The translations under genes and the position numbers were made by a program. Source: a virus. Taken from it: 64,000 bases of DNA. Each line of letters opens with the position of its first letter. Position 1 is the first letter of the stretch. The notes under the pieces were generated by a model, which had not been told where the DNA came from, did no database searches, and was given only the letters and a program-made list of their open reading frames with translations. Positions 35,473 through 55,928 of the stretch are shown piece by piece. The stretch is taken from the IMG/VR virus record IMGVR_UViG_3300036781_000418, positions 219,296-283,295 of that record. One strand, given 5' to 3'.

Positions 35473-35931
35473 ATGAACCTCACAAAACTTACCCAACTCA
35501 ATGAGTCGACTGACGCTGACCTACTTTCCAAGCTGGACAATGTGTGTAAGCTCTCCATTCAGATGGAGTTGAAGCCGATTAAGTTCGCCAAGAACACCTC
35601 CAATGAGGACAAAGCCGAGGCCACAAAGCTCGCCATTGATCACTACAAGTCACGACTGGACAACTTTTGGTTTGATTCCAGGGCGCTTACGTCAGGCGTA
35701 AACGGCATCAAGGCCTACATGGAAGAATGCTCAAAGCATGGATTTAAGTACGACGCTGCGGCTTGTGAAAAGTTGATCGGAGAGATGACGCATGCGAAGT
35801 TAGTTGGCGACCTTGCTTCAACCATCACCACGCACATTGCCCTTGCCGCCCAAGGCCGTACGAACCGCACTTGGGATTCAGATCAGCAAACTGCGGCGAT
35901 CCTTCTGATGAAGGTCGTCGGTATCAAATAA
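35473..35931 (+). CDS. hypothetical acidic protein, member of the MK[LI]xx[LI]xE[ST] N-terminus family
   Basis: paralog of 38620-39063 (N- and C-termini align). Confidence 0.5.
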   Translation: MNLTKLTQLNESTDADLLSKLDNVCKLSIQMELKPIKFAKNTSNEDKAEATKLAIDHYKSRLDNFWFDSRALTSGVNGIKAYMEECSKHGFKYDAAACEKLIGEMTHAKLVGDLASTITTHIALAAQGRTNRTWDSDQQTAAILLMKVVGIK

Positions 35932-35936
35932 ACAAA

Positions 35937-36007
35937 CTCACCGCCAAAGGAATGGTCCGAACGCTACGAACGTTTGGCAGGAGGTTCGAGTCCTCTCGGT
36001 GGGTCCA
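35937..36007 (+). tRNA. tRNA-Arg (ACG)-like with reduced D-arm
   Basis: acceptor ctcaccg/cggtggg, anticodon stem gaacg/cgttt with loop CTACGAA, T-arm, CCA; only 71 nt. Confidence 0.45.
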
Positions 36008-36015
36008 CCAACAAT

Positions 36016-36090
36016 GGCGTTCGTAGTGTAATGGTAGCACCAGAGACTGTGAATCTTTTAGTGCGGGTTCGAACCCCGTCGATCGCCCCA
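36016..36090 (+). tRNA. tRNA-His (GTG) with encoded G-1
   Basis: extra 5' G pairing with discriminator C, loop CTGTGAA, CCA. Confidence 0.8.
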
Positions 36091-36096
36091 ATTAAC

Positions 36097-36170
36097 GCGT
36101 TCGTGGTGTAATGACTGCATAACCGGCCGAAAGCTGGCAGGGCCTGGGTAGAGACCAGGCGAACGCACCA
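36097..36170 (+). tRNA. tRNA-like element / degenerate tRNA-His duplicate
   Basis: identical acceptor gcgttcg/cgaacgc and CCA, similar D-arm; anticodon and T regions replaced by non-canonical hairpins. Confidence 0.35.
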
Positions 36171-36242
36171 AAATTGACAACCGCTTTGGTTGACGGTTAT
36201 CTCATTTCCAGAATCCCCCGTCACCTGTTCTTTGTTGTCTAT

Positions 36243-36317
36243 GGCTGCCTAGCTCAGTGGTAGAGCAATGTCTTGATAAGGCATAGGTCGTTGGTCCGAT
36301 TCCAACGGTAGCCACCA
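36243..36317 (+). tRNA. tRNA-Ile (GAT)
   Basis: D-arm tagctcagtggtagagc, loop TTGATAA, T-loop TCCGATT, CCA. Confidence 0.75.
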
Positions 36318-36321
36318 AATT

Positions 36322-36395
36322 GCCTCTGTAATTCAATGGCAGAATACCGTGCTGATAACGCGGCTACGCAGGTTCGATTCCTGACGGAGGCACCA
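36322..36395 (+). tRNA. tRNA with GAT anticodon (second Ile-like, divergent)
   Basis: acceptor gcctctg/cggaggc, stem ccgtg/cgcgg, loop CTGATAA, CCA. Confidence 0.65.
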
Positions 36396-36406
36396 GCTAA
36401 ATAGTC

Positions 36407-36676
36407 ATGTACTCAATGGAGATCTACATGGCTGATACGACCACAACCCCTGCAACTGACCTTTCCACCGCGGTTGACTCCGCCGCCGTTCAGGCGATCG
36501 TGGACAAGAAGTTCTGGCAGTCGAAGACTTTTTGGGCCAACGTCATTCTCGCTGGAGCGATCCTCTTGCAGATGAAGACAGGCTTCTTGATCAGCCCAGA
36601 CCTACAAGGTCTCGCGATCACTGGTATCAACCTCGTGCTGCGTAAGTTCACGAGCGGAGCCGTCACGCTCTGGTAA
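36407..36676 (+). CDS. small membrane protein (89 aa)
   Basis: ORF track; TAAATAG box 13 nt upstream. Confidence 0.45.
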   Translation: MYSMEIYMADTTTTPATDLSTAVDSAAVQAIVDKKFWQSKTFWANVILAGAILLQMKTGFLISPDLQGLAITGINLVLRKFTSGAVTLW

Positions 36677-36684
36677 CAAACTGA

Positions 36685-36758
36685 TGGGACGTGGTGTAGT
36701 GGTAACATGTGGGGATCTGACCCCCTCGCCCTAGGTTCGATTCCTAGCGTCCTTGCCA
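36685..36758 (+). tRNA. tRNA-Gln (CTG)
   Basis: stem gggg/cccc, loop ATCTGAC, T-arm ctagg-TTCGATT-cctag, CCA. Confidence 0.65.
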
Positions 36759-36834
36759 AACAATGGGACCAATTCGGTCACTTGATTTTCGTTCCTTAAG
36801 AACCGTAAGTCATCGTTATCGTCCCGCCAACAAT

Positions 36835-36907
36835 GGAGCCTAAGCCTGATTGGTGAGGGTGCAGTATGATTGCTGTTAAGATGGAGTTCGAATCTCTATG
36901 GGCTCCC
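36835..36907 (+). tRNA. tRNA-like gene with irregular (6- or 8-nt) anticodon loop, no encoded CCA
   Basis: acceptor ggagcct/gggctcc, T-loop TTCGAAT; anticodon region gcagtatgattgctgt cannot form a 5-bp stem with a 7-nt loop. Confidence 0.4.
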
Positions 36908-37374
36908 CTAATCTGAAAGTGACTCTTGAGCCGGCTGGTAAGCGTGGCTTGAAGTTTCTGATCTACGCGGTAGTTAACGGACGTAAGCGTGAAGTTGGAT
37001 ACCTCAACTCCGCCGTCACTCGGAACATCACGAAGCATGAAGTACTCGCGGCTCACGATGACTACAAGCTCGTCAAGCGCATCTTCAAGCAGGTTCCGGA
37101 CGAGTACACGTTCAACTACTACTGGCTGCAGAAGCTCTTCGTCTACGAGGAGTACAGTGGTCTTGGTATTGGTTCAGCGGCCCTGCAAGTTTGGTTTACC
37201 AAGCTGCGATCGATCGCGATGGTGGCCTTGGAAGCCTATCCAATTGGGTACCGAACGAAGGTGGAGCTTGAACGGTTCTACCTCAAGAACAACTTCGTCG
37301 TGTTTCATCGACTGCGTCCAGCAGGAGAGCGACAACGGCGAGCAACGATGGCCATGACGTTCGTCAAGGCCTAA
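36898..37374 (+). CDS. GNAT-family N-acetyltransferase
   Basis: motif VYEEYSGLGIGSAAL; start may be the downstream GTG at 36919. Confidence 0.5.
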   Translation: MGSPNLKVTLEPAGKRGLKFLIYAVVNGRKREVGYLNSAVTRNITKHEVLAAHDDYKLVKRIFKQVPDEYTFNYYWLQKLFVYEEYSGLGIGSAALQVWFTKLRSIAMVALEAYPIGYRTKVELERFYLKNNFVVFHRLRPAGERQRRATMAMTFVKA

Positions 37375-37381
37375 CGAATAT

Positions 37382-37457
37382 GGGTGATTGGTGTAGTTGG
37401 CAGCATAGCGGTCTCCAAAACCGTTGGTCATGGGTTCGAGTCCCTGGTCGCCCGCCA
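37382..37457 (+). tRNA. tRNA-Trp (CCA)
   Basis: acceptor gggtgat/gtcgccc, loop CTCCAAA, CCA. Confidence 0.8.
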
Positions 37458-37514
37458 TATAGCTTTGAGTAAGCTTGCTAAATAGGAAGCAACAATTCCA
37501 TTTAGGAGTCTCTC

Positions 37515-37751
37515 ATGGCACTTCGCAACGTAACGGGCCCAGCCCTGCACAGCTTCACGACTGACGAGCTTACCGCGATCGTCGGCAACTACGGCCCATC
37601 GGGCACCATTGACGACGGCGCAATCGCTCCTGGTGCAATGGTTTGGAACACGGATGAGTCCGCAGTTTGGGTCTTTGACGGCACGACGTTCAGCGCCGTA
37701 GCCGCCGCTCCAGCTCCAGCTCCTTCGCCTGCACCGGCTCCATCGCCGTAA
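37515..37751 (+). CDS. small protein (78 aa) with C-terminal (A/S)P repeat
   Basis: ORF track; TAAATAG box upstream; APAPAPSPAPAPSP tail. Confidence 0.45.
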   Translation: MALRNVTGPALHSFTTDELTAIVGNYGPSGTIDDGAIAPGAMVWNTDESAVWVFDGTTFSAVAAAPAPAPSPAPAPSP

Positions 37752-37774
37752 TTCAGTCGTAGGCTGAAAACAAA

Positions 37775-37807
37775 GAAGGGGAACCGAGTGATCGGTTCCC
37801 CTTACTT
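37775..37807 (+). terminator. rho-independent terminator
   Basis: ggggaaccga-gtga-tcggttcccc followed by T-rich run. Confidence 0.65.
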
Positions 37808-38086
37808 ACTTCGCGGTGACCCTTGGTGGTACCCTACTTTCTGGAGCAGCCAGGAAAGCGGAAAGGTCGGCTGAGGTTCCACACAACTGAAAGGAATCGT
37901 TTACCGGTGACCAAAGTTCCGGCAAAACACGACACCTCAGCTGGCCGTGTTCCTATTTGCTTCTCTAAGCAAGTACATTTTACGCAGCGACGTCTTCGGA
38001 TAACACTGCACATTTCAGGTTTAAGAAAGGATGCATCATGATGATCAGCTCGACGCTTGATGCGTCTGGTAAACACACCTCCTAAT

Positions 38087-38160
38087 GGGGGTGTAGCTCA
38101 AGGGTAGAGCAGGTGGCTTTTAACCACCCGGCGAGGGTTCGATCCCCTCCACCCCTACCA
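38087..38160 (+). tRNA. tRNA-Lys (TTT)
   Basis: stem ggtgg/ccacc, loop CTTTTAA, T-loop TTCGATC, CCA. Confidence 0.8.
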
Positions 38161-38194
38161 AATCACGTAAATAGCTGACCATATTGGAGTCCCC

Positions 38195-38623
38195 ATGAAG
38201 CTCAGCACCATTTCCGAACTCATCGCCATCAACGAAGCGGCGCTTAAGATCAGCGATACCGGTTGGTACGTAATCGATCCGACCGTGCACGACGGCGATA
38301 ACCCGCACTACAAGAAGGCCGCTGGCCCGTACAGGACGCGTGAAGAGGCGAAGGAGTACGCCACTGGCAAGGACCAAGTTAAGTTCGGTCACATGGTCAA
38401 CAACGGCTTCATTGAGGTCGATGAACATGGCACCTCGAACGAAGGCTACGTCGCCGTTTCACAGGCGCTGGTCTACGTGAAGAAGGCGATTGGCGCCCTT
38501 GCTGAAAGCGAGAACGAAGTGAAGGAGCACCTTGAGATGCTTGGCTTTGACATCTCCTTCGACAACCTGCTTCAACAGCTGAACGACCTTGAGGAACACC
38601 TTAAGGACGCGTCGACAAAATGA
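38195..38623 (+). CDS. hypothetical acidic protein, MKLxxIxE N-terminus family member
   Basis: N-terminus MKLSTISELIAINEA; TAAATAG box upstream. Confidence 0.5.
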   Translation: MKLSTISELIAINEAALKISDTGWYVIDPTVHDGDNPHYKKAAGPYRTREEAKEYATGKDQVKFGHMVNNGFIEVDEHGTSNEGYVAVSQALVYVKKAIGALAESENEVKEHLEMLGFDISFDNLLQQLNDLEEHLKDASTK

Positions 38624-39063
38624 AACTGATTCAGCTGAATGAAAACCTTGACGAGGCGAAAATTGACGCCTTCATCAAGGCCTACAACGGCATTGAAGCG
38701 CCACTCGCTAAGAAGCTCAAGCCGAAAGGATCGCCTGAGATGATCAAGGCGGCCTTTGACCTTGCATTTGATCATCATCAACGAGATGAAGTTCTGGACT
38801 TTGATGACGCGGCGATGACACGTGGCATCAAGGGCATCGAAGCCGCCCTCAACGCGGCCAAGGAGTACAAGACGTCAATTGACGTCGCCGCTTGCACCAA
38901 GGCCTCCATGGAGCTGAGTCAGCTCCGAAACTTTGGCAAGCTGGCCACTGACGTCGGCAACGCCATGTTCGTCGCTTTGCAGGGACTGAACAACGAACAT
39001 TGGTCTAAGGATGATCAAGCCCAAGCCCTACTCGCCTGTAAGTCGGTAGGCATCAGTAAATAA
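38620..39063 (+). CDS. hypothetical protein, MKLxxLxE family, paralog of 35473-35931
   Basis: N-terminus MKLIQLNENLD; ATGA overlap. Confidence 0.55.
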   Translation: MKLIQLNENLDEAKIDAFIKAYNGIEAPLAKKLKPKGSPEMIKAAFDLAFDHHQRDEVLDFDDAAMTRGIKGIEAALNAAKEYKTSIDVAACTKASMELSQLRNFGKLATDVGNAMFVALQGLNNEHWSKDDQAQALLACKSVGISK

Positions 39064-39064
39064 T

Positions 39065-39140
39065 GCATCGTTGACCTGAGAGGTTAAGGACCCTCCTTAC
39101 AAGTGGGAATATGCTGGTTCGAGTCCAGCACGATGCACCA
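39065..39140 (+). tRNA. tRNA-Val (TAC)
   Basis: acceptor gcatcgt/acgatgc, loop CTTACAA, T-loop TTCGAGT, CCA; one U-U mismatch in anticodon stem. Confidence 0.65.
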
Positions 39141-39147
39141 TATAATA

Positions 39148-39223
39148 GCTCTGGAAGTGTTACAAGGTGGCATGACAGTTTCGTAATCTGTAGGACGCGG
39201 TTCGAGGCCGCGCCGGAGCACCA
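39148..39223 (+). tRNA. tRNA-Thr (CGT)
   Basis: acceptor gctctgg/ccggagc, loop TTCGTAA with a U-U at the stem closing pair, T-arm cgcgg-TTCGAGG-ccgcg, CCA. Confidence 0.6.
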
Positions 39224-39284
39224 AAATTCCCGGGAGGACGCGCAAGCGTCCTCCTATTTTCGCATCAACAACTGGAGAAAATCC

Positions 39285-39671
39285 ATGAACGCCGACTTCC
39301 ATTCTCGCTTTATCACCAACACGGACGACACAGGCCGTTTCATCGTGAGCTCACAGCGGACGGGTATTCGGTACTACGTGGAACCGGTCGTGACGGAGCA
39401 CACCCCTGAGTGGGGCTCCATCGATCCAGCCACCGGCAACCTTACCCACAAGAAGGGTGACGGCAAGTACCGTGGCGGTGTCTCACCGTCTGAGTCCATC
39501 GTGAACGAGGATGCGGTCAAGGTTGGTGTCTTCGCGAAGGTGCACGACCTTGGACGAGGCGTGTCACCACACCAGGCGATTGACTACCTCGACGCACAGT
39601 ACCCAACCGTCAACCCAGCGTATGAGCTCACCGCTGAGTTTATCGGCTCCATCGTCAACCCAGCCTACTAA
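39285..39671 (+). CDS. hypothetical protein (128 aa)
   Basis: start at MNADFHS; the track's upstream extension overlaps tRNAs and is rejected. Confidence 0.5.
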   Translation: MNADFHSRFITNTDDTGRFIVSSQRTGIRYYVEPVVTEHTPEWGSIDPATGNLTHKKGDGKYRGGVSPSESIVNEDAVKVGVFAKVHDLGRGVSPHQAIDYLDAQYPTVNPAYELTAEFIGSIVNPAY

Positions 39672-39679
39672 GGATTATC

Positions 39680-39901
39680 ATGGCTACCCTCAAGGACCTC
39701 GTTGGTCCGGACAAGACCGTCCACTTTCAATTCTATCGTAAGGGTGCGCTCTACTATCGCACGTCAGACAACTTTGAATTCTTGGTGCCGATTGAGGACT
39801 GTGGTGACGCGGAATTTTTGGCAATGGACAAGGCTATGATGTTCATGCGGTACATTCGCAAACAGCTAGCCGTCAACGCTGAAGGCAGGGAGGCTGTATG
39901 A
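39680..39901 (+). CDS. hypothetical protein (73 aa)
   Basis: ORF track. Confidence 0.45.
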   Translation: MATLKDLVGPDKTVHFQFYRKGALYYRTSDNFEFLVPIEDCGDAEFLAMDKAMMFMRYIRKQLAVNAEGREAV

Positions 39902-40077
39902 ACGCCAAGAAGCTGGAAAAGAAGAAGCTCAAGCTCGCCGAGCGGATCAAGCAGCTGGAGGATGGGCTCGTCCTCTCCCTCCAGAAGAAGTCCTCCTCAG
40001 CAACCGAGATCGACATGCCTGGCACGATGCGCCAGATCCGAGAGCTGAAGGAAGAGCTGGACGAGCTAAATAGCTAA
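39898..40077 (+). CDS. small coiled-coil protein (59 aa)
   Basis: ATGA overlap; Lys/Glu/Leu heptads; below track cutoff. Confidence 0.35.
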   Translation: MNAKKLEKKKLKLAERIKQLEDGLVLSLQKKSSSATEIDMPGTMRQIRELKEELDELNS

Positions 40078-40080
40078 CCA

Positions 40081-40155
40081 ACAATTTACGCTGTCATAGT
40101 GCTAGTGGAAACACACGTCTTTGGTAAGGACGGATCGAAGGTTCGATTCCTTCTG
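40081..40155 (+). tRNA. tRNA-Thr (GGT)
   Basis: acceptor gctgtca/tggcagc, loop TTGGTAA, CCA. Confidence 0.8.
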
Positions 40156-40159
40156 GCAG

Positions 40160-40504
40160 CACCACTCTATGTTCGTCACCATCCATGAACTGCTGAACGC
40201 AATCCAAGTGAACGAGTCTCGCTACTCGGACATGGTGGAGCAATGGTGCTCAACGAACCTTGAGTCCTTTAAGACCGCCACGGACGCCTACCTTGCGCTT
40301 CGCAAGTACGTGGACGAGACGAGCGTCTTGAAGAACTACCTCACGGCCACCTTTAAGGGCAGTGAGGTCCGAATTCAGAGGTACCTCATCGACATCCTTT
40401 CACAGATGGCCAAGGAGAAGAACCTCAGCGGCTACGGTGAGGTTGACCTAACACAGGCCAACTACAACCACAGCGCGTCAGGAAGCGCGTCAGCTTCCAT
40501 GTAA
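40160..40504 (+). CDS. hypothetical protein (114 aa)
   Basis: start at MFVTIHE just after the tRNA. Confidence 0.5.
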   Translation, partial: HHSMFVTIHELLNAIQVNESRYSDMVEQWCSTNLESFKTATDAYLALRKYVDETSVLKNYLTATFKGSEVRIQRYLIDILSQMAKEKNLSGYGEVDLTQANYNHSASGSASASM

Positions 40505-40511
40505 GGTCAAT

Positions 40512-40592
40512 TGACAGGTGGTGTAATCCGGATGGCAACACACTTGGGCCCAACTTAAGGAGATGCTGGTTCGACCCCAGCCCTGTCAGCCA
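40512..40592 (+). tRNA. tRNA-like gene with atypical anticodon loop GCCCAAC (CCA with C33?) and oversized D-loop
   Basis: perfect acceptor tgacagg/cctgtca, T-arm gctgg-TTCGACC-ccagc, CCA. Confidence 0.4.
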
Positions 40593-40688
40593 AATGCAAC
40601 TACTCATCCTCATTATCCTGGCGCCGCTCTGGTTGCCGATCGCGATCATTGGAGCCCCACTGTGGCTCCTCCTCATGGTAATCCTTTC

Positions 40689-41084
40689 ATGGAAGCGCTG
40701 AACCACAAGCAGGTTATCGTCCTGCGTAAGGACCTCAACATGCGTAAGGGCAAGCTGGTTGCACAGGGCGCGCACGCCTCAATGGCGGCGATCCTTAGCC
40801 AGGGCCAGGCCACCGACGTTGGTGACACCTTCACCATTCAGCTGGACGATCGCATGAAGGACTGGCTCCTAGGCTCCTTCAAGAAGATCACAGTCTCAGT
40901 AAACTCGGAGGAGGAGCTGCTGTCCCTGTACGAGCGAGCTAAAGGTTCAGGTCTGATCTGCTCACTGATCCTTGACTCTGGCCTGACCGAATTTGGTGGT
41001 CGCCCCACCTACACCGCGGTCGCCGTCGGTCCGGACGTAGCTGCGAAGGTCGACGTGCTCACCGGTGACCTTCCGCTGCTGTAG
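40689..41084 (+). CDS. peptidyl-tRNA hydrolase, PTH2 family
   Basis: VLRKDLNMRKGKLVAQGAHAS matches the PTH2 active-site region. Confidence 0.65.
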   Translation: MEALNHKQVIVLRKDLNMRKGKLVAQGAHASMAAILSQGQATDVGDTFTIQLDDRMKDWLLGSFKKITVSVNSEEELLSLYERAKGSGLICSLILDSGLTEFGGRPTYTAVAVGPDVAAKVDVLTGDLPLL

Positions 41085-41167
41085 GCGTAGCACCTTACAC
41101 CGTCGCCGAACGGTGTGCACTCGGTCAACCTCTACTCACGGTCCAACACCAACGTCCCGCTAACTTA

Positions 41168-41207
41168 AAATGGCAGCAACGCTTCGGCTTGCTGCCATTT
41201 TTGTTTT
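41168..41207 (+). terminator. rho-independent terminator
   Basis: atggcagcaa-cgcttcggc-ttgctgccat followed by TTTTGTTTT. Confidence 0.7.
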
Positions 41208-41220
41208 CTTGAGACCATAA

Positions 41221-41394
41221 TGGACCGCTCAAAATCTTACTACCGACTTAAACTGCGTCGAGATGAACTGTGGTGGCGTAACTCCGAGCCTCTGAACCTG
41301 CAGTGCGCCAATGATCGACTCTGGAGAAAGTTGAAGCTCAAGCCATTTTTCTTCGACTACAACGAGAAGACTGGGCCAGCATGAGCATCGCATA
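41221..41394 (+). CDS. small basic protein (57 aa)
   Basis: below track cutoff; low support. Confidence 0.25.
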
Positions 41395-41485
41395 ACATTG
41401 AAGCTTTAAGTCCGTCTCAGGTTCAGCAGGATCCGTGCAGATGCGCGTGTTATGATGTTCTGATCGGACATAACCCGGACCAGAT

Positions 41486-42004
41486 ATGATCACCAACGAA
41501 CAACAGGCAATCCGGCAGTGGTTGTCAAAACCCGCTCCGTACAGCGGCGGTTGCGGCTGTGTTGGTCCACAACGGATGAAGTATCCCGGACCTGTGTACG
41601 GAGTTGGAGGCCCCGTCCATGACGAGTACACTCTCAAGGTACTCGTGCCCAAGAGCCTCACCCGTGCCCAAGCCATCCGCGCCACCCTGCGCTGCAAACA
41701 AGCTATGGCCCTCAGCATGGAGGAAGCTAAGCAGCTGATGTCGCACGAACCGATATCTCGAAAATCCGAGTATCCGTTGTTCAGCCACACCGACCTTAAC
41801 GCCATGAAGGAGCTAGGTGTCGAGGTCGCCGAAGGACGGGCCGTTGATCCAAACTATGGCTACAAGCCCGTGTGTCCGTGTGCCATGGCGTACGTTGAGG
41901 AGGTCAACGGCTTCTTCTACATGATCATTGAACATCGTAGCCCAGATGGCATCACGCACACGGCCAAGAACCTTGGTCCAGTTGGCGGGCCCTACTACAA
42001 ATGA
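41486..42004 (+). CDS. hypothetical protein (172 aa)
   Basis: plus-strand ORF preferred over antisense 41338-41805. Confidence 0.45.
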   Translation: MITNEQQAIRQWLSKPAPYSGGCGCVGPQRMKYPGPVYGVGGPVHDEYTLKVLVPKSLTRAQAIRATLRCKQAMALSMEEAKQLMSHEPISRKSEYPLFSHTDLNAMKELGVEVAEGRAVDPNYGYKPVCPCAMAYVEEVNGFFYMIIEHRSPDGITHTAKNLGPVGGPYYK

Positions 42005-42336
42005 AGTTCGCCGAATTCATCATTCAGCCTCGACCACTGGGGTCAGCTGAGCTGGAGTTGAAGGCGGCGATCGAGGCGGATCCACGACTGGTGGTCACGA
42101 AGCTGCAGGTTCGGCGGCAGTACAAGACGGATCCGTTGTTTGTGCGTCGCCGCCTTCGTTACTACATGACTCGTACCCTACTGCTGGTGTACGAGTTCAT
42201 CTGTCCGTGTGGTGAAATTCAACGGGAGGTGAAGTCCCTGCCGTTCAACTGGCGTCACCCTGACACCTTGTCCGTGCTCTGCGCTAAGCTCAGTGCGAAC
42301 ACCTACCAACATCTTAAAGATGAAGGACTCGTATGA
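42001..42336 (+). CDS. hypothetical protein (111 aa)
   Basis: ATGA overlap. Confidence 0.5.
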   Translation: MKFAEFIIQPRPLGSAELELKAAIEADPRLVVTKLQVRRQYKTDPLFVRRRLRYYMTRTLLLVYEFICPCGEIQREVKSLPFNWRHPDTLSVLCAKLSANTYQHLKDEGLV

Positions 42337-42575
42337 AGCATGATGATGCACCCCATAAACGATGGGAACCGAAGCCGGCCTACTTGTCCGGTCGGTTCCA
42401 TCGTCCCCCACGTGGCCTGATCACCAAGGCGCGTCATGGTGAAGACGGCGTGCCGTTCGACGCCCAGTTCTACTATGACAACCAGTGGTACCACGTCGAG
42501 GGCAAAACGAGAATCAAGCTCGTCGACGACCCTCGCGATCTTCAATGGCTCCAAACCCCTAACCAAGGAACCTGA
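42333..42575 (+). CDS. hypothetical protein (80 aa)
   Basis: ATGA overlap. Confidence 0.45.
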   Translation: MKHDDAPHKRWEPKPAYLSGRFHRPPRGLITKARHGEDGVPFDAQFYYDNQWYHVEGKTRIKLVDDPRDLQWLQTPNQGT

Positions 42576-42576
42576 C

Positions 42577-42819
42577 ATGAACGTCAACGCCCACTGTGAA
42601 CTGACCAAGGTGCTCTCCGAGATCATCCTTGAAGCCCACACCGCCTGCACCGACGCAGCCTCCACGTACGCCCACTTTGAAAAGGTGCAAGCCAACCCCG
42701 CCACCCGTATCGAAGGTCTCGAGATGTCCGAGGTCAAGACCTTTGCCGCCATCCTTGACTATGACGCGATCCGCGCCGACACCAAGGCGCTGTCCGACCT
42801 GATCATCACGGCGGGCTGA
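42577..42819 (+). CDS. hypothetical protein (80 aa)
   Basis: start at MNVNAHC. Confidence 0.45.
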   Translation: MNVNAHCELTKVLSEIILEAHTACTDAASTYAHFEKVQANPATRIEGLEMSEVKTFAAILDYDAIRADTKALSDLIITAG

Positions 42820-48562: not shown

Positions 48563-48933
48563 TTGAGTACCTGTGGTATGTCCTGAGGCTGAACTTCAGA
48601 TTTGGAGGTCCAGCTTCCGTCGGTGCAGTCATGCAGATGGAAGGCTACACTGACTGCGATATCCATGAAATTGAGCGGCACGTCGCCCATGAAGAGGCGC
48701 TTAAGCTCTGGAACCTGCTTGGTGAAGCGCCTCGGTCGCATATTGCGTCAGGTTTTGTACGTGACGTCTTTGGTTGGGCGGCCGGCGGAAAGCTGCCGGC
48801 GAGAACGGCCCTCCTCTACGCACAGCACTCCGTGAACACCAACGAGACCAGCTGCTGGGTGCGGTGGGCTATGGAGGAGATCATGAGCCTGGTTGAAGGC
48901 TATGACCTGGAGAACTATTCCGGCCGGAATTGA
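48559..48933 (+). CDS. hypothetical protein (124 aa)
   Basis: ORF track. Confidence 0.5.
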   Translation: MIEYLWYVLRLNFRFGGPASVGAVMQMEGYTDCDIHEIERHVAHEEALKLWNLLGEAPRSHIASGFVRDVFGWAAGGKLPARTALLYAQHSVNTNETSCWVRWAMEEIMSLVEGYDLENYSGRN

Positions 48934-48949
48934 TCCTGCACCAGGAAAT

Positions 48950-49015
48950 ATGTTACACAGTCCTGGGGCCGTTACACCTTCGGATATGTACATTTCGTCA
49001 GACAGGTCTATAATT
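48950..49015 (+). promoter_or_regulatory. promoter module copy A: GTTACA-N13-GTTACA, TGTACA, N16, TATAAT
   Basis: same architecture and spacing as copies at 51262 and 55931; 68 nt before ATG 49083. Confidence 0.5.
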
Positions 49016-49082
49016 CGCTCAACGCCACAGAACGTGTGCGCCGGAACCGAGCCACCTCTCGGATACTTGCTGAGGAAAACGA

Positions 49083-49679
49083 ATGAACACAGCTCAAAGC
49101 GCCGGCAGCACCGGCGGAACTCCTTCGACGGCCACGAATCCGGCTGACACCTCCACCACGACCTCCACGGAACCCGGCACCACCACGGTGAATCCGGCTA
49201 CGACGCCAGCTGGTACGCCGGACAACACCACCCCGCCGGCCCCGAAGGCCACGGTCAAGGTGAAGGCCGCCGCCAAGTCGACCAAGGTCAAGGCTGACGG
49301 CAAGAAGGAAGCTCCGAAGAAGGAGGCCAAGCCGAAGGCTGAGCCCAAGGCCAAACCCGTCAAAGAAGCCAAGCCGCCGAAGGAGCCCAAGGCTCCGCGC
49401 GTTCCGACCGAGCGCAAGCCGGCCAAGGACGCCATGGCCCTCCGCACGCGCTTCTCCTTCGGTGACGCGTTCCTCCGCGTCGCTGAAGAAGGCAAGCACC
49501 ACGACATGGGCAAGCTGGCCGCGTTCGGCGCTGCCTGCGGCCTGGGTACCTTCGAGGAACTCTCGAAGCGTGAGCACCAAAACCTGAGCGACGCGATCAT
49601 GGGCCACATCAAGCTCGGCGACCGCAAAGACTTCCCGAAGAACTTCAAGCTCGACGAAGGCAAGATCGCCGGTATCTGA
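49083..49679 (+). CDS. histone-H1-like AKP/KPK-repeat protein with C-terminal 'SFG...HHD..KL(S/A)AF' domain
   Basis: T/P-rich N-terminus, Lys/Ala/Pro repeats, C-terminal domain paralogous to 51378 and 56071 gene products. Confidence 0.6.
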   Translation: MNTAQSAGSTGGTPSTATNPADTSTTTSTEPGTTTVNPATTPAGTPDNTTPPAPKATVKVKAAAKSTKVKADGKKEAPKKEAKPKAEPKAKPVKEAKPPKEPKAPRVPTERKPAKDAMALRTRFSFGDAFLRVAEEGKHHDMGKLAAFGAACGLGTFEELSKREHQNLSDAIMGHIKLGDRKDFPKNFKLDEGKIAGI

Positions 49680-49696
49680 TCGGCCACGCCATCCAC

Positions 49697-49726
49697 AAGG
49701 GGACCGTAAGGTCCCCTTTCCGTTTT
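49697..49726 (+). terminator. rho-independent terminator
   Basis: ggggacc-gtaa-ggtcccc followed by TTTCCGTTTT. Confidence 0.65.
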
Positions 49727-49737
49727 CAGGAGAACTC

Positions 49738-50118
49738 ATGAAGCCTCTGTTCCCATTTGACCTGTCCACATACGACTGCGACATGCTGCTCAGCGACAAC
49801 CCTGAGCACGCCGAGGCCTTCCGAAAGCTCACGGTATATCGCACCGTTAACCGTCATGAAGTCACCGCCACGGTCACCGAGGACGCAAAGGTCAAGATCA
49901 ACGCGTGGGCGTCCAGCGACAGCGGCTTCATGCAGCAGGCCGGTACGTACTGGACGAAGATCATTCAGCTGTCTCAACTCCAGGTCCGGCAATACGTCAT
50001 GAAGGAGGTGCAGCGCCGGGCGATTGAGGAGATTATGGAGGAGGATCGCCAGGAACAGCTTCAACGGGTGGCCGCCAGAGCCAAGTCGATCGCTGCTAAG
50101 CTTGGTGTGTCGAAGTAG
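49738..50118 (+). CDS. hypothetical protein (126 aa)
   Basis: ORF track. Confidence 0.5.
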   Translation: MKPLFPFDLSTYDCDMLLSDNPEHAEAFRKLTVYRTVNRHEVTATVTEDAKVKINAWASSDSGFMQQAGTYWTKIIQLSQLQVRQYVMKEVQRRAIEEIMEEDRQEQLQRVAARAKSIAAKLGVSK

Positions 50119-50137
50119 TACCGACCCGGCGACACGA

Positions 50138-50166
50138 GGGAGGCTGAGGGCCTCCCTTCTTCGTTT
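50138..50166 (+). terminator. rho-independent terminator followed by a TAAATAG box
   Basis: gggaggc-tgagg-gcctccc then TTCTTCGTTT then gTAAATAG. Confidence 0.6.
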
Positions 50167-50197
50167 GTAAATAGTGCATTCACTTGAGCTCCTACGA

Positions 50198-51259
50198 ATG
50201 CGCCTGACCACCCTACTAGAGTCCCGAAAGGTCCGTGACTACCGTCATCCTCACGCTAACATGGCACGAGAAAAGTACTTCGGAGATGACAAGGGTCCGG
50301 AGTACATCGACCCGAAGGACGGCTTTCACTTTGAGACGAACTCCTACGGCGAGCTTGTCCTGTCAAGCACGAACAACCACAACTACTCCGCCATCGTGTC
50401 CATGGATCCGGAGGAGGTGGCCAAGCTGCGCAAGCCAGGTCAAGGTCAAGGTCTACCTCGCGCCCTTGCGGATCGAATCAAGCAGGGCGGCAACGAGACG
50501 TGGAACGAGTTCGGCGGCAAGGTCACCTACGCCGACAAGACGATTCGCTGCACCATCCAGCACATCCACAACAACAGGAAGCGGACCCGCATCGCCGAGG
50601 ACATTCACGTAATCAAGACCGCGTTGTCGCAGCTGAAAAAGTACGGCGTCACCGACGACTTCAAGCTGACTGCGATTCAAAGCCCGTTCAAGAATATGAC
50701 GGTGGGTGAAGTGCTCGGTATGCCGGACAGCAACTTCGTCTACAACATGGCCAACGCCACCACGGCCGCCATGCGCAAGCACATCAAGAACGTCAACAAG
50801 AACGGCAAATCTCGAGTTGTTAAGGACATGGACTCCTTCACCGAGCTGGCGAACAAGACGGACCTTGATTGGCCTGATCGCTACTGGCACGCGCAGGACA
50901 TCACCACCAACTCCTACTGGTTTGGCGGCAAGATGGAGTCGCTCCACGGAGACGAGGACGGTGAAATTCTGTCGCTGAAGGACCACGCCAAGCTCTTCTC
51001 CAAGCTCCTGCTCCGCCACATCGCGAAGCTGCAGGACGAAGGCATCGACGTGGTGTTCCCACCGGACGGCACGCGTCGCATGCAGCAGGCCATGCACCCA
51101 GACTGGGTATCACTTACGGGTGAGGATCTGAAGGAGCGCAAGACGGAGAAGCTTGAGCAGATGAAGGAGGACATGACGAAGTTCTTCAACGGAATCGAGG
51201 ACGATGCCAAGAAGATCGAGCTGAACCTGCTCTTGACCTACTTGGGGATCACGATCTAG
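50198..51259 (+). CDS. hypothetical protein (~353 aa); start uncertain
   Basis: ORF track (GTG at 50174) or the ATG at 50198. Confidence 0.5.
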   Translation: MRLTTLLESRKVRDYRHPHANMAREKYFGDDKGPEYIDPKDGFHFETNSYGELVLSSTNNHNYSAIVSMDPEEVAKLRKPGQGQGLPRALADRIKQGGNETWNEFGGKVTYADKTIRCTIQHIHNNRKRTRIAEDIHVIKTALSQLKKYGVTDDFKLTAIQSPFKNMTVGEVLGMPDSNFVYNMANATTAAMRKHIKNVNKNGKSRVVKDMDSFTELANKTDLDWPDRYWHAQDITTNSYWFGGKMESLHGDEDGEILSLKDHAKLFSKLLLRHIAKLQDEGIDVVFPPDGTRRMQQAMHPDWVSLTGEDLKERKTEKLEQMKEDMTKFFNGIEDDAKKIELNLLLTYLGITI

Positions 51260-51261
51260 AA

Positions 51262-51324
51262 CGTTACAACTTCGGGATAACGTTACACTTTAGCAGTGTA
51301 CAAATCCCCAGGTCATGCTAGAAT
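51262..51324 (+). promoter_or_regulatory. promoter module copy B: GTTACA-N13-GTTACA, TGTACA, N16, TAGAAT, then conserved leader
   Basis: leader tcaactcatgcaaacaagcaat shared with copy C. Confidence 0.5.
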
Positions 51325-51377
51325 TCAACTCATGCAAACAAGCAATCCCGCTAGTTGCAGAACCTGGAGAATACATC

Positions 51378-51692
51378 ATGACCTCGACTTCCAAGACCGC
51401 ACGAACCGCCGCTACCCGTGACCTGGCCGCCCATCGCATCGCGATGAACAGCCGCGGTCGCATGTCCTTCGGCCGCACGTTCCTCGACACCCTCAAGGCT
51501 GGCAACTCCCACCACGACGCCGCCAAGCTGTCCGCCTTCTTGGTCGCCAACGGCGCCGAGACCGCGAAGTCCATCAAGGCGAAAGCCAAGTCCGGCGAGC
51601 TGACGCTGGAATCCTTGAGCAAGGCCGCTACGACCCTGATCAAGAAGACACCGGAAGACCAACTGGTGATGAAGTTCAACCTGAACGACTAA
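51378..51692 (+). CDS. small 'SFG...HHD' family protein (104 aa)
   Basis: AAHRIAMNSRGRMSFGRTFL...HHDAAKLSAF; paralog of 56071-56358. Confidence 0.55.
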   Translation: MTSTSKTARTAATRDLAAHRIAMNSRGRMSFGRTFLDTLKAGNSHHDAAKLSAFLVANGAETAKSIKAKAKSGELTLESLSKAATTLIKKTPEDQLVMKFNLND

Positions 51693-51745
51693 ACCTCAGC
51701 CACCTACGCCCACATCGCTGGGCGTAGGACCTTTCTGGAGACATC

Positions 51746-51952
51746 ATGACTGTGACGAATGTCCTCCGCGAGTTGCTTGCCGTTCGCGAGTTACGCGCCG
51801 AGTATATGCGCCAAAAGCAGCGACGCGCTGTGAAGTTCCGCCGCGACCTTGCCCAAGTTGCTGAGGCTGATCGTCTGAAAGCCGAGCTGGACGTTCGAGA
51901 GCCGGCCGCCTGGAAGATGGCCGAGGACGTCCTTCGAATCCAAGGAGATTAA
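51746..51952 (+). CDS. hypothetical protein (68 aa)
   Basis: ORF track. Confidence 0.45.
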   Translation: MTVTNVLRELLAVRELRAEYMRQKQRRAVKFRRDLAQVAEADRLKAELDVREPAAWKMAEDVLRIQGD

Positions 51953-51953
51953 C

Positions 51954-52133
51954 ATGATCAACCATGACTACGACGCAGTCAGCCTTCAAGCTGACGTTTG
52001 GAAGGCCGTGGCTCGCAGTCAGCTGCAACGTCCGGACTTTAACAGCCGTGGCGCAGCCATTGCGTTCGCCAAGGCGGTGTTCGAGGGTAAGCGTAAGGCC
52101 GAACCGGCCGTTGAGGAGATCAAGCATGACTGA
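51954..52133 (+). CDS. small protein (59 aa)
   Basis: below track cutoff; overlaps next start. Confidence 0.3.
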   Translation: MINHDYDAVSLQADVWKAVARSQLQRPDFNSRGAAIAFAKAVFEGKRKAEPAVEEIKHD

Positions 52134-52812
52134 AGACCGCATCATCGACAAGATCAAGAAGTGCCTGGAGCTGGCCAAGGACGATCGTGCTAACCCATCC
52201 GAGGCCGCCAACGCCCTGCGTCAGGCCCAAGCCCTGATGAAGAAGCACAACGTCACCTTGGGTCACATCGACCGGTCGGCCATCGGCACGGTGAACGTCA
52301 CGGCCTGCAGTGTCTCGCGCCCGAAGCGCTGGGAGCTGGACCTGATGCACCTGATGGGTCGTGCCTTTGGCTGTAAGGTCACCTGGATCTCGGGTCGGTC
52401 TGGTACGCGCTTCGGTCGGTTTAACCTGATCGGCGTGAAGTCTCAGCTGGAGATCGCCCACTACACGGCCGAGGTCATGCAGCGGAAGCTCTACAAGGCC
52501 CGCGCCAACTACGTGTCCACGTTGCCGCTCTGGATGACACGCGGTGAGAAGACCCAGGCGGCCGACGGTTTCTGCATCGGTTGGGTCGAGGCAGTCCAGA
52601 AGACGGTCCACGACTTTGAGCAGGACGGCAAGGTTAAACTGTTGCTCGAGACGATCGTCAAGGAAGCAACTGGTGATCGTCAGGCGAACATCCATGATCG
52701 TGAAGTGGCGGACGAGGACATGATGGCGGGCTACCGTGTCGGCAAGACCGAGTCGATCCACCGCCCCATGAAGGACCGTGACCCCCAACTTCAGATTGGA
52801 CACGACTCATGA
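52126..52812 (+). CDS. hypothetical protein with DUF2786-like N-terminus
   Basis: IIDKIKKCLELAKDDRANPSEAANALRQAQALMKKH pattern; remainder unknown. Confidence 0.45.
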   Translation: MTEDRIIDKIKKCLELAKDDRANPSEAANALRQAQALMKKHNVTLGHIDRSAIGTVNVTACSVSRPKRWELDLMHLMGRAFGCKVTWISGRSGTRFGRFNLIGVKSQLEIAHYTAEVMQRKLYKARANYVSTLPLWMTRGEKTQAADGFCIGWVEAVQKTVHDFEQDGKVKLLLETIVKEATGDRQANIHDREVADEDMMAGYRVGKTESIHRPMKDRDPQLQIGHDS

Positions 52813-52991
52813 AGAACATTCCCAACATCACGTACCTGATGCGCTGCATCCGGTGTGATCACGAGCAGAAGGTAACCTCAGCCGCGGCCCATGAGGACGA
52901 CAAGGGCGAGCAGAGCTTCTACTTTGGTTCTCGATACGACTTCTGTGACCTGTGCGACGGTCACATGGTCGTCATCAAGCAGCTCGATTAA
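52809..52991 (+). CDS. small zinc-ribbon protein (60 aa)
   Basis: CIRCDHE...CDLCDGH. Confidence 0.45.
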   Translation: MKNIPNITYLMRCIRCDHEQKVTSAAAHEDDKGEQSFYFGSRYDFCDLCDGHMVVIKQLD

Positions 52992-53010
52992 CCACCTCGA
53001 AACCACCGAC

Positions 53011-53037
53011 AGGGCCTTAGGGCCCTTTGTTCGTTTC
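53011..53037 (+). terminator. rho-independent terminator followed by a TAAATAG box
   Basis: agggcc-ttag-ggccct then TTGTTCGTTTC then ttaaatag. Confidence 0.6.
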
Positions 53038-53068
53038 TTAAATAGAGGATCACAATGTGGATCCTCGA

Positions 53069-53548
53069 ATGAAGCTTGCCACCCTCCATGAAAGCGGCAC
53101 CCTAGATACCAAGGACGTCTCGACGCTCGTCCAGTTCCTGACTGATGTATGCGAAAATCATAAGTTCAGTCACTGGCAGCCGTTTCTCGGTTTGGTAAAG
53201 GACTATGGGCACTACGACGCCGCGTCAGTTGAGGCCATGTACATGGGAATGTACATGGACGGCACTATTGGAATAGGAAGCCTAGATCAGGTTGTCAAGA
53301 ATCTAAATCAGCTGAACAATGAGTTTACTCGGAACCTTGACCACGTGATGGGCAAGGAAGCCAAGGAGCTTATCAGCCGAGGCATGATCAACCGCTTCGA
53401 TCAACTAGGTGAGACAATAAAGCTTGCCAACGCCTTTCACACCCTGATTCAGTGGGCTGACGACGACAAAGATGAATTTGATTCAGACGAACGGGCAATC
53501 TACGACAAGCTAATCACGCACCTTGAAAACAAGGCCCAGACGGTCTAA
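53069..53548 (+). CDS. acidic helical protein, MKLATLxES family member 1
   Basis: start at MKLATLHESG (track start 53057 is upstream in frame). Confidence 0.5.
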   Translation: MKLATLHESGTLDTKDVSTLVQFLTDVCENHKFSHWQPFLGLVKDYGHYDAASVEAMYMGMYMDGTIGIGSLDQVVKNLNQLNNEFTRNLDHVMGKEAKELISRGMINRFDQLGETIKLANAFHTLIQWADDDKDEFDSDERAIYDKLITHLENKAQTV

Positions 53549-53572
53549 ATACCAGATCACACGGATTCCCAA

Positions 53573-54052
53573 ATGAAGCTAGCAACCCTACGAGAAAGCC
53601 TAACTGGCAAGGCCCTCATCGATCACATCGAGCTCGCCGCGACCGAGGTCTTCGGCGAGGAGAACTCCCAGTGGGCGCCAGGCATCAACACCAAAGTAGA
53701 GGTCCTTGAACAAGGTCTCAAGTGGGCCGTTCACGAATGGAACGATTCAGGTGGTCACCATGATTTTGGATTTAGCCTTAACAGTCGAGCTGTCAAGCTT
53801 GGCCAGGCCGCCTCTTCTCTGCAGCTAAGCCCTGCACCGAATCCGGCTAAGCTTGAGGTGCTTGAGGAATTTGACCGAAAGGTCAATGAACTTGTCGATG
53901 TTTACTCTCAGCTGGATGCAGTTTCCACCGCCGCCGAGATGTTCTTCGACATCGTTCATGACATGAACCAGGTCATCGAAGATGACGAGGATAAGTACAA
54001 AACAAAGGTCGCGATGAACACCATGAAGCTCATGGGCGCGGAGGTCTTCTAA
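53573..54052 (+). CDS. acidic helical protein, MKLATLxES family member 2
   Basis: N-terminus MKLATLRESLTGK. Confidence 0.55.
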   Translation: MKLATLRESLTGKALIDHIELAATEVFGEENSQWAPGINTKVEVLEQGLKWAVHEWNDSGGHHDFGFSLNSRAVKLGQAASSLQLSPAPNPAKLEVLEEFDRKVNELVDVYSQLDAVSTAAEMFFDIVHDMNQVIEDDEDKYKTKVAMNTMKLMGAEVF

Positions 54053-54831
54053 TGAACCTAGAACAACTACTCGAAGGCGACGACGCAACCGAGAGCACAC
54101 CAGTCGCGCTCTTCAAAGAACTACGTGCGCTCGTTGCGAAGTTTGAGGCGCCACTTACCGTCGCTGCGCGAAAAACTAGAACCGGAACGGTCATCGTGTT
54201 TAAGCCGTCGAATAAGTCAGACGCCAACAATATCCTGTCGAACGAAGACCTGATCATGCTGTTCAGCAAACAGCTCAAGAAGGTCTTGGCTGAGAAGATC
54301 CACGCTGGTCAGAAGTTCGTGCTCTTTCAGCTCCAACTCTCCGACGCGCAGGCAGCCCATTGGTTCAAGCAGTTCAACAAGGAAGACACACTTGACGAGC
54401 TGGACGCCTTCACAAAGGACGGCCGACTACCAAAGATCTACGTTCAGCGTGGGGCGGACGACCTTGGTGAAATGACGATCGACTTGACGATTGGGTATAA
54501 GACGCCTAGCGCGAAACGAGCCAAGAGCTTTCAAACCAGTTTTAGCTTTTCAGCGCCCACCGACACGATCAACGCCATCGTCAAGATCGCCAACCGCGAT
54601 GGACGCTATCTCCAACTACATTATCCATCCGTGGTGTTCAACGAGCTGGTCAAGTTGCTGGTGTCACTTGGCGCGCCAATCGACAAGGTCATCACCGACC
54701 TTGATCAACAGTTTCCTAGCGCGAGCATGCACGTGATCGCGTACCAGTCGCTTAAGCGAGCTCGCAACGTCCCTGGACCAAGGATTGGAGAGCTGATGTT
54801 GAAGCTCGCCAACGAATCGACTAAGGCCTAA
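54052..54831 (+). CDS. hypothetical protein (259 aa), N-terminus MNLEQLLEG
   Basis: ORF track; ATGA overlap. Confidence 0.5.
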   Translation: MNLEQLLEGDDATESTPVALFKELRALVAKFEAPLTVAARKTRTGTVIVFKPSNKSDANNILSNEDLIMLFSKQLKKVLAEKIHAGQKFVLFQLQLSDAQAAHWFKQFNKEDTLDELDAFTKDGRLPKIYVQRGADDLGEMTIDLTIGYKTPSAKRAKSFQTSFSFSAPTDTINAIVKIANRDGRYLQLHYPSVVFNELVKLLVSLGAPIDKVITDLDQQFPSASMHVIAYQSLKRARNVPGPRIGELMLKLANESTKA

Positions 54832-54832
54832 C

Positions 54833-55357
54833 GTGAAACTTTCAAACCTTACCGAGTCAAGTGGTGGCAAGCCAATGGTTGATTCGCTAGTAAAGCTTGC
54901 CAATGAGGTGCACAGCACGACCAACGCGCAACGAGTGAGAAGCGCAATGGACGGCTTGTCAGACGAAAGCGTACAGCACGCCCTTGAACAAGCCGTCAAG
55001 CTGTCGCAGAAGTACGGCTCAGACGGTGCCTACAACTTGTTCTCAAATCCACTTGACAACTACGACAAAATTAGGTTGGACATCGACAAGCTTCATGTGG
55101 GAAGTGAGGATTCTCACGGTGACAGGGTGCAGGTGCTTGATCCAAAGCTGCTGGTTAAGTTGAAGGCCGTCTCAGAGAGCTTCATCTCCGTAATTGAGGA
55201 GCTGCACGATGGGGCGAACCTCATCAAACAGCTCCTTAAGCTGTTTGACTTCTTTGAGCACTATCATCGAAACATCGAAACGCGTGATCATGAAGATGCG
55301 GACGTTCACAAGGCGTTGATCAAGGCCATTTTTAAAAAGCTAGGATTGGATCTATGA
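54833..55357 (+). CDS. acidic helical protein, family member 3 (GTG start)
   Basis: N-terminus (M)KLSNLTESSGGK. Confidence 0.5.
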   Translation: MKLSNLTESSGGKPMVDSLVKLANEVHSTTNAQRVRSAMDGLSDESVQHALEQAVKLSQKYGSDGAYNLFSNPLDNYDKIRLDIDKLHVGSEDSHGDRVQVLDPKLLVKLKAVSESFISVIEELHDGANLIKQLLKLFDFFEHYHRNIETRDHEDADVHKALIKAIFKKLGLDL

Positions 55358-55421
55358 AGAAGGGTTTCCTATTTGAAGCTGGTCCGGTGTCGGCGAAGAA
55401 GTTTGGATTGGAGTTTACGGA

Positions 55422-55928
55422 ATGAAGATCGCGCAGATCAACGAAACGGTTACCCCTGAACGTGCACTTGAAGTGCTGATCAAGGTTCTCAACGAGATCA
55501 TCAATGATAAATCCACGCCACAACCTATGTCCAGTAACCGCTTGGACAAGATGAGCAAGCTATCGCATTCAGCGCAGGAGTGGGGGGCGGCCGCGGCGGT
55601 GGAAAGTTGGAACAAAAACGGCGGCGTCATGCCGTCCATCAACCTTGTCGACGTTAAGCAATTTCACCGGCCGCTAGGCCAGTTGGAAGACGCAAAGTTT
55701 CACGGTTGGCTTGGGCCCAAGCACGGTGAAGAGGCGATAAAGCAGATGCAGGCAATTATAGCAGAATACAGTGAACTGTCTGAAAGACTACAGGCGTTTG
55801 AACTCGCCACAAGCATACTGGCGATCCTTCAAGGTGAAGCTGATGATTCCCGCTCCAACAAGTACACAATCAGTCTAGCCAAAGGCGCCTTCCGTGCGCT
55901 AAATCTAAAGGTGAACGGCACAAGCTAA
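55422..55928 (+). CDS. acidic helical protein, family member 4
   Basis: N-terminus MKIAQINETVTPE. Confidence 0.5.
   Translation: MKIAQINETVTPERALEVLIKVLNEIINDKSTPQPMSSNRLDKMSKLSHSAQEWGAAAAVESWNKNGGVMPSINLVDVKQFHRPLGQLEDAKFHGWLGPKHGEEAIKQMQAIIAEYSELSERLQAFELATSILAILQGEADDSRSNKYTISLAKGAFRALNLKVNGTS

Follow-up and report, generated by a model that had tools for sequence, protein, structure and literature searches.

Why should proteins with no detectable kinship to one another begin with the same eight residues? The question is raised by a 64,000-nucleotide stretch of phage DNA, hereafter the window (positions 219,296 to 283,295 of IMG/VR record IMGVR_UViG_3300036781_000418), which is part of a 342,591-bp metagenomic contig and was examined together with about 2 kb of adjoining sequence on its left and about 10 kb on its right. 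The shared peptide, called the tag below, is real and far above chance, is constrained at the amino-acid level and stands on unrelated proteins; it recurs in phages that have genes in common with this one and in T4-like head modules, and the units that carry it have the same promoter motif as the tail-fibre genes of the window and the head genes of T4-like contigs. From its close likeness to the capsid-loading leader peptides of T4, we consider it probable that the tag is a portable leader of the T4 type, one that would target packaged and injected proteins to the capsid and be removed there by a protease.

Among 98 genes obtained from a crude codon-usage gene call, K[LI]xx[LI]xE stands at residue 2 of six proteins and at residue 5 of a seventh (start codon at 35473), as against two internal occurrences in roughly 16,000 positions (binomial P ~1e-15 for the N-terminal enrichment). 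The seven start codons named in an earlier reading of the same DNA (the original prediction) lie where it placed them and yield the N-termini it quoted, and the similarity among these N-termini is indeed above the level that chance would give. The looser pattern [KRN][LIV]xx[LIV]xE brings in three further genes (I, J and F), and an eleventh carrier, gene K (MKIDQLLEA; L004 4487-4798), lies about 3 kb past the end of the window, making ten tagged genes inside it and one just outside. The ten are the following.

5-334, plus strand: gene I, 109 amino acids (aa), MKVAQLFEE; called as a gene in a public assembly
35473-35931, plus strand: gene A, 152 aa, MNLT-KLTQLNES, with the tag shifted by three residues; paralog of C
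38195-38623, plus strand: gene B, 142 aa, MKLSTISEL
38620-39063, plus strand: gene C, 147 aa, MKLIQLNEN; its start overlaps the stop of B
50198-51259, plus strand: gene J, 353 aa, MRLTTLLES
53069-53548, plus strand: gene D, 159 aa, MKLATLHES
53573-54052, plus strand: gene E, 159 aa, MKLATLRES
54052-54831, plus strand: gene F, 259 aa, MNLEQLLEG (a looser tag); homology to its neighbours was not detected
54833-55357, plus strand: gene G, 174 aa, GTG start, MKLSNLTES
55422-55928, plus strand: gene H, 168 aa, MKIAQINET

The cluster at 53069-55928 is in tandem, as originally described, with five tagged genes in place of the four then counted; the description of the proteins as acidic holds for some members only, the isoelectric points (pI) running from 4.7 to 9.2. 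Carrier lengths run from 103 to 353 aa. Aligned in register, the carriers read M-K-[LIV]-x-[TQN]-[LI]-x-E, then mostly S or T, and a G/P/T/D-rich stretch usually comes directly C-terminal of the tag. Position 5, to which the original prediction did not draw attention, is T, Q or N in every carrier; [LI]-x-E occupies positions 6-8 in all eleven, and eight of them continue with S, T, G or A. In gene A the tag makes up residues 4-11; in the other nine window members, and also in the eleventh carrier, it makes up residues 1-8. No such start of an open reading frame (ORF) was found in about 150 kb of unrelated phage loci (small phages recruited with the neighbouring DUF2786/DUF7168 gene as anchor), in 50 kb of phage Cr30 or in 14 kb of T4.

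The codons of the tag vary freely. Ser9 is encoded by AGC in D and E and by TCA, TCC or TCG in G, J and A, Leu is spelled by five different codons across the tags, and the leaders upstream of the tagged genes are not conserved; selection therefore acts on the tag peptide, not on the DNA or RNA. A secretion signal (Sec or lipoprotein) was considered and rejected, there being no hydrophobic core, polar or acidic residues from position 4 and Glu at position 8. Three further genes, not counted as members, start with MYKNLSDLLKE (26648-27403), MKYENLQTL (27433-27753) and MFVTIHELL (40169-40504), and may carry degenerate forms of the tag; TAAATA, the motif treated below, lies directly upstream of the first two, and the third comes just after a tRNA that itself follows TAAATA.

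The tag also corrects gene calls, two of the public calls having cut it off. The public call for G begins 14 codons later, at an ATG (160 aa), and so loses 54833-54874, while that for J begins at Met22 (332 aa) and loses 50198-50260, including the tag. In both cases the tag, together with the homolog alignment, speaks for the longer form.

The carriers had been described as one gene family. Two of them, 35473 and 38620 (A and C), are full-length paralogs, as predicted (35% identity, expect value (E) ~1e-20 in blastp), and 53573 is weakly similar to 54833 and 55422, with D, E, G and H weakly related and in tandem. The family as a whole does not survive: between groups, similarity in blastp and profile-profile comparison is limited to the N-terminus (only the first ~21 columns align when the 35473/38620 pair is compared with the 53069-55928 group), homology along the full length of all members was not detected, and the tag is thus common to six or more groups of proteins that are unrelated in sequence. 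Five carriers (B, F, I, J and K) stand alone as singletons, the first four of these without detectable kinship to other carriers beyond the N-terminus. Just behind the tag, residues 31-88 of B align with residues 12-66 of J at 29% identity (E ~1e-3 in a tiny database), and the two may share a sub-domain.

Database searches returned little beyond the proteins themselves. None of the ten window members has a significant match in Pfam or PHROGs; tblastn of the concatenated members against 50,697 phage records gave no match at E < 0.1; a word-indexed search of 5.8 billion clusters returned self matches only; an exhaustive HMMER search of 1.84 billion representatives returned self and one marginal match (a 1,021-aa protein, E = 4e-4); and IMG/VR searches with members E and C found no relatives. 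Weak, coiled-coil-like matches in a sequence search of the PDB (e.g. IpaD, E ~1e-3) were judged compositional and set aside. To judge by these searches, the tagged proteins are ORFans, with J as the one exception. Residues 6-177 of J are 39% identical to residues 15-179 of protein P0009 on a related 97-kb contig (L029 10001-10975) that has two further genes in common with the window. The two proteins share an N-terminal domain of about 170 aa and have unrelated C-terminal halves, that of the homolog showing a YHGT...VYLA...E pattern with weak, sub-threshold matches to families of the ADP-ribosyltransferase fold (Tpt1/KptA, ART-PolyVal). The layout resembles that expected of a delivery domain with swappable effector modules.

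The tagged genes are also set apart by their promoters. TAAATA occurs 25 times in the window against 4.2 expected (a six-fold excess), nearly always co-oriented with genes and 20-37 nucleotides before their starts, and it often overlaps the preceding stop codon (examples at 1698, 14256, 20407, 26614, 27401, 33590 and, on the minus strand, 61806). The copies that precede tagged genes, and two hairpins beside them, are as follows.

L002 2170-2175, just outside the window: TAAATA before gene I, 21 nucleotides upstream of its ATG
35446-35451, plus strand: TAAATA before gene A, a promoter-like motif
38168-38173, plus strand: TAAATA before the B-C pair
50136-50158, plus strand: hairpin resembling a terminator, immediately ahead of the J promoter motif
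50168-50173, plus strand: TAAATA before gene J
53011-53026, plus strand: hairpin resembling a terminator, immediately ahead of the D promoter motif
53039-53044, plus strand: TAAATA before gene D
53546-53551, plus strand: TAAATA before the E-F-G-H operon, overlapping the stop codon of D

Tagged genes without a TAAATA of their own are translationally coupled to those that have one, except for 55422, which follows a 64-nucleotide gap. Both large tail-fibre genes of the window, which bear a Peptidase_S74 chaperone domain, are likewise preceded by TAAATA. In the T4 late promoter, TATAAATA, this hexamer is the core, and the window version looks like a T4-late-type promoter cut down to six bases in a genome of 57% guanine plus cytosine (GC). 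A different signal, the sigma-70-like TGTACA-N16-TAnAAT, stands at 48987-49014, 51297-51324 and 55966-55993 and nowhere else in the window, each time before one of three paralogs (49083-49679, 51378-51692 and 56071-56358) that share RMSFGRTFL...HHD..KLSAF. With TAAATA before the tagged genes and the sigma-70-like signal before these neighbours, the tagged genes appear to be separate units with a promoter class of their own. Each RMSFGRTFL paralog stands just before or beside a block of tagged genes, and the N-terminal half of one of the three is Lys/Pro/Ala-rich and histone-like.

Tag and TAAATA are found together in phages that have genes in common with this one. A 73-aa window protein (39680-39901), used as query, led to three IMG/VR contigs that each have four or five window genes in common (44-66% identity), 12-23 tRNAs and strand-biased TAAATA; their tagged N-termini read MKVHELFES, MKVHDLFET, MKLQELFED, MKVCELFEA, MKLVELFEE, MKVTELLEN, MRVQELLAES and MKITFKQFIAES, on proteins unrelated to one another and to the window members. 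The closest relative found, a contig of 343 kb with an RNA ligase 74% identical to that of the window, has the tags MKLIQLFEA and MKVKELFEE, and in the window it is gene I that comes nearest to the MKVx[EQ]LFE consensus of these other phages. IMG/VR was then scanned for DNA encoding MKVx[DE]LFE, with the same codons in permuted order as the control. For the tag there were 124 matches, spread over 117 stretches and lying at ORF starts in 104 cases; the control had 12 matches, four of these at ORF starts, and was thus rarer by a factor of 10 overall and of 26 at ORF starts. The contigs concerned span 30-66% GC, several are of 330-360 kb, and one carries three tagged genes in tandem. Across the 104 non-redundant tagged proteins of other phages mean column identity is 5%, and nearly all are without a Pfam match, the few exceptions including effector-type domains (Zeta toxin, ART-PolyVal, transglutaminase-like); in 62 of the 104, the Glu is followed by A, G, S or T.

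A pattern that joined the promoter to the tag at the DNA level was less productive: it had no match in IMG/VR, and in JGI metagenomes, a collection that lacks the window's own contig, it gave 11 matches at a chance-like level, including one tRNA-array contig without protein homology to the window. In the GenBank metagenome contigs JACCDS010965756 and JACCDY010241775 (L007 8372 and L010 5137), a 9-kb array of 16-19 tRNAs and small genes has MKLQTLFES after a tRNA and TAAATA, as in the window; protein homology to the window was not found there.

A link to head assembly comes from other carriers of the tag. T4 gp20, gp21 and gp23, used as queries, find homologs in several tag-bearing loci, and homologs of gp21, scaffold and gp23 are present on five other tag-bearing IMG/VR contigs. 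In these T4-like head modules the tagged ORFs lie between portal/protease and scaffold/capsid, or directly before the portal gene, and gp20, gp21, gp23 and the tagged ORFs are preceded by TATAAATA where GC is low or by TAAATA where it is higher. The portal-adjacent tagged family (...KYTEKRVK...) is also represented in contigs related to the window. T4-like sheath neighbourhoods on a 360-kb contig had no head genes within 10 kb.

Among characterized systems, the nearest likeness in sequence is to the T4 leaders that gp21 processes. Read from the T4 record, ipII and ipIII start MKTYQEFIAE/A (the slash before the residue that follows the leader) and ipI starts MKTFKEF; gp24 starts MAKINELLRE/S, gp22 starts MLKEQLIAE/A and gp67 MEGLIE/A, and gp23 has KPLLEGEG near its N-terminus. 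The leaders of gp24 and gp22 conform at almost every residue to the pattern K-[IVL]-x-[EQ]-L-[LF]-x-E-[SA], and the LRES of gene E is identical to gp24 residues 8-11; these T4 proteins are, however, conserved structural or core proteins, whereas the tag here heads ORFans outside any visible head module. In the organization of its carriers, the tag resembles the T4 capsid targeting sequence (CTS), which is reportedly due to Mullaney and Black in 1996. Shared with it are the Met-Lys start, two hydrophobic residues three apart, [LI]-x-E and a small residue, as well as the placing of the leader on small, rapidly evolving proteins that are otherwise unrelated and are encoded in clusters around tRNA genes: the T4 ip genes flank a tRNA cluster, and one tagged cluster of the window is interleaved with tRNAs. 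The CTS differs in that the consensus here has eight residues, MK[LIV]x[TQN][LI]xE, as against MKTYQEFIAE, and in that the tag belongs to an uncultured 342-kb genome known from sequence alone. The window consensus does not match the IPIII leader itself, to which one protein of a related contig, with MKITFKQFIAES, comes close; the likeness is to leaders of this class, above all those of gp24 and gp22. The CTS is carried in T4 by IPI, IPII, IPIII and Alt (PMC9026906, PMC3012670), and the first 10 residues of IPIII are enough for packaging, residues 4 and 7 serving targeting and residues 8 and 10 processing (PMC9026906).

Proteases of T4, phiKZ and SPN3US all cut after Glu, the giant-phage motif being A/S/G-x-E (PMC5694885); cleavage of gp24 after Glu10 is established, and the same source's statement on 10-20-residue propeptides bears on it. 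In the phiKZ-like giants, too, diverged paralogs keep a conserved extreme N-terminus within which lies a protease site ending in Glu (SPN3US gp53/gp54, MANFVKSKLARESVE; phiKZ gp93 is cut at SLE-13; PMC5694885). They differ from the present case in cleaving at S/A/G-x-E and in having propeptides mostly longer than 100 residues, whereas here, and likewise in T4, L or I stands three residues before the cut; both sigma-70-like and T4-late-like promoter motifs are present in the window as well. An inner-body or ejection propeptide of the phiKZ type was therefore rejected, as all members have L or I where S, A or G would be called for. DarB of phage P1 offers a further parallel, in that an N-terminal segment suffices to load a protein, even a foreign reporter, into the capsid for injection, with the differences that more than nine and up to 30 residues are needed and that the Dar proteins have no common consensus (PMC9024508). 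The original likening of the tag to packaging or propeptide signals of virion-internal proteins in jumbo phages is partly supported and, as to the kind of signal, is the explanation with most in its favour, backed by the form of the gp21-processed leaders, by the tag's occurrence on unrelated proteins in gene-sharing phages, by the enrichment at ORF starts and by the tagged ORFs in T4-like head modules; the precedent moves from phiKZ-type jumbo phages to T4.

On this comparison, the tagged genes would be transcribed late from the TAAATA promoters, and the leader would bring each of the proteins to the scaffolding core of the prohead during assembly and dock it there. A prohead protease of the gp21 family would then cut after the Glu of [LI]-x-E, and the mature proteins would remain beside the DNA inside the head and pass into the host on infection, where they would probably act as fast-evolving effectors of host takeover or anti-defence. 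Docking, cleavage, packaging, injection and effector function are all inferred, since the part of the genome in view, the window and the ~12 kb around it (of 342,591 bp), shows no gene for a prohead protease, a scaffold or a capsid protein.

That gap is the first of several points that weigh against a T4-type leader. The loci at hand from the jumbo relatives likewise yielded no homolog of gp21, scaffold or gp23. Compared with the widespread consensus, the window tag has T, Q or N in place of E or D at position 5 and a variable residue in place of F at position 7, and in genes B, C and I the residue after the Glu (L, N and E, respectively) is not small. Several carriers are acidic, unlike IPII and IPIII of T4, which are basic. 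In J the tag abuts the conserved domain, and the only homolog has LLE at residues 15-17, after a longer N-terminus. An AlphaFold2 model of 53069-53548, made from a four-sequence alignment, has a predicted local distance difference test score (pLDDT) of 42, too low for the model to speak for or against the tag as a free extension. TAAATA also stands before tRNAs and before genes of non-structural appearance, and virion proteins therefore cannot be read off from the promoter class by itself.

It is unlikely, in our judgement, that the tag is instead an N-terminal helix bound by some other common partner (a host protein, a phage chaperone or a ClpXP-like regulatory protease) for localisation or timed turnover. 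Conservation at the amino-acid level on unrelated proteins would be expected of any peptide-recognition system, Met-basic-hydrophobic N-termini are known ClpX recognition signals, and the lack of a capsid or protease gene in the sequence at hand suits such a partner as well. What partner binding leaves unexplained is the [LI]-x-E followed by a small residue, as in gp21 cleavage sites, the tagged ORFs within T4-like head modules and the promoter motif held in common with head and tail-fibre genes.

Descent from a single duplicated gene, whose N-terminus is merely its slowest-evolving part and has no role as a signal, strikes us as improbable. Tandem duplication is clear here, from the A/C paralogs and from the weakly related tandem genes D, E, G and H; such descent is nevertheless hard to square with the spread of lengths and pI among the carriers, with the loss of profile similarity past ~21 columns and with the situation elsewhere, where the tag heads different Pfam domains and the 104 proteins show almost no identity by column. 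Even under common descent, the selective retention of these eight residues would argue for a function.

Less probable still is a role for the conserved stretch at the DNA or RNA level, in the initiation of translation or in recombination, as a favourable 5' coding region or a patch of homology for cassette exchange. Well-expressed genes often have Lys as their second codon, and in T4 the leaders of ipII and ipIII have the same DNA sequence; the tag, by contrast, draws Ser from both AGY and TCN and Leu from five codons, its upstream leaders are unconserved, and the permuted same-codon control of the IMG/VR scan is far rarer than the tag. Chance, for which it can be said that MKL is a frequent bacterial N-terminus and that the motif was defined only after the data were seen, is already refuted by the enrichment at starts, the clean control loci, the independent recovery of the motif in phages with genes in common with this one and the permuted-control scan.

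Whether the T4-type leader extends beyond these phages is a wider claim. The pattern MK[VLI]x[EQT]L[FL]E, together with the window variant, might be a general, portable capsid-loading tag across a wide range of T4-like phages and a tRNA-rich jumbo clade of ~330-360 kb, a proposal we put forward tentatively, at somewhat short of even confidence. If true, more than 100 unrelated and mostly unannotated proteins would be flagged from sequence as packaged, injected cargo, an uncatalogued 'injectome' enriched in anti-defence and host-takeover effectors. The concept is already known from T-even phages; a search of the literature found no description of this consensus, of its presence in a tRNA-rich jumbo phage or of its apparent metagenomic breadth. 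Most genes of large phages are without known function, and proteins injected along with the DNA, inhibitors of host defences included, are the first to act. If the tag is a capsid-loading signal, a simple sequence rule would pick out such proteins from genomes and metagenomes, the presence of ORFans in hypervariable clusters with their own late promoters would be explained, and there would be a minimal tag with which foreign proteins could be loaded into further phages besides T4.

As to the phage itself, a near-identity DNA search of 50,697 deposited phages, with 52900-56000 as query, found no near relative. The recognisable genes of the window include a CCA-adding enzyme, a peptidyl-tRNA hydrolase (Pth2), an Rnl2-type RNA ligase and phosphatases, and scattered accessory proteins are 34-40% identical to those of Caulobacter phage Cr30, Ralstonia phages RSL1 and RsoM2USA and Xanthomonas phage XacN1. 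On this showing the source is an uncultured jumbo phage with no close cultured relative. We counted 27 tRNA genes in the window; to its left (L002 1-2100) the tRNA array goes on, with several tRNA-like stretches apparently split by long inserts. Fragments of a peptide chain release factor gene (PCRF/RF-1) adjoin the eleventh tagged gene outside the window (L004 3816-4490, ~67.3-68.0 kb in window numbering) and, together with the 27 tRNAs, the CCA-adding enzyme, Pth2 and the RNA ligase, point to a large translation-related gene set. In the first cluster, between the tagged genes and the tRNAs, 36898-37374 encodes a small GNAT-type acetyltransferase (a weak Pfam match); that it modifies N-termini would be pure speculation.

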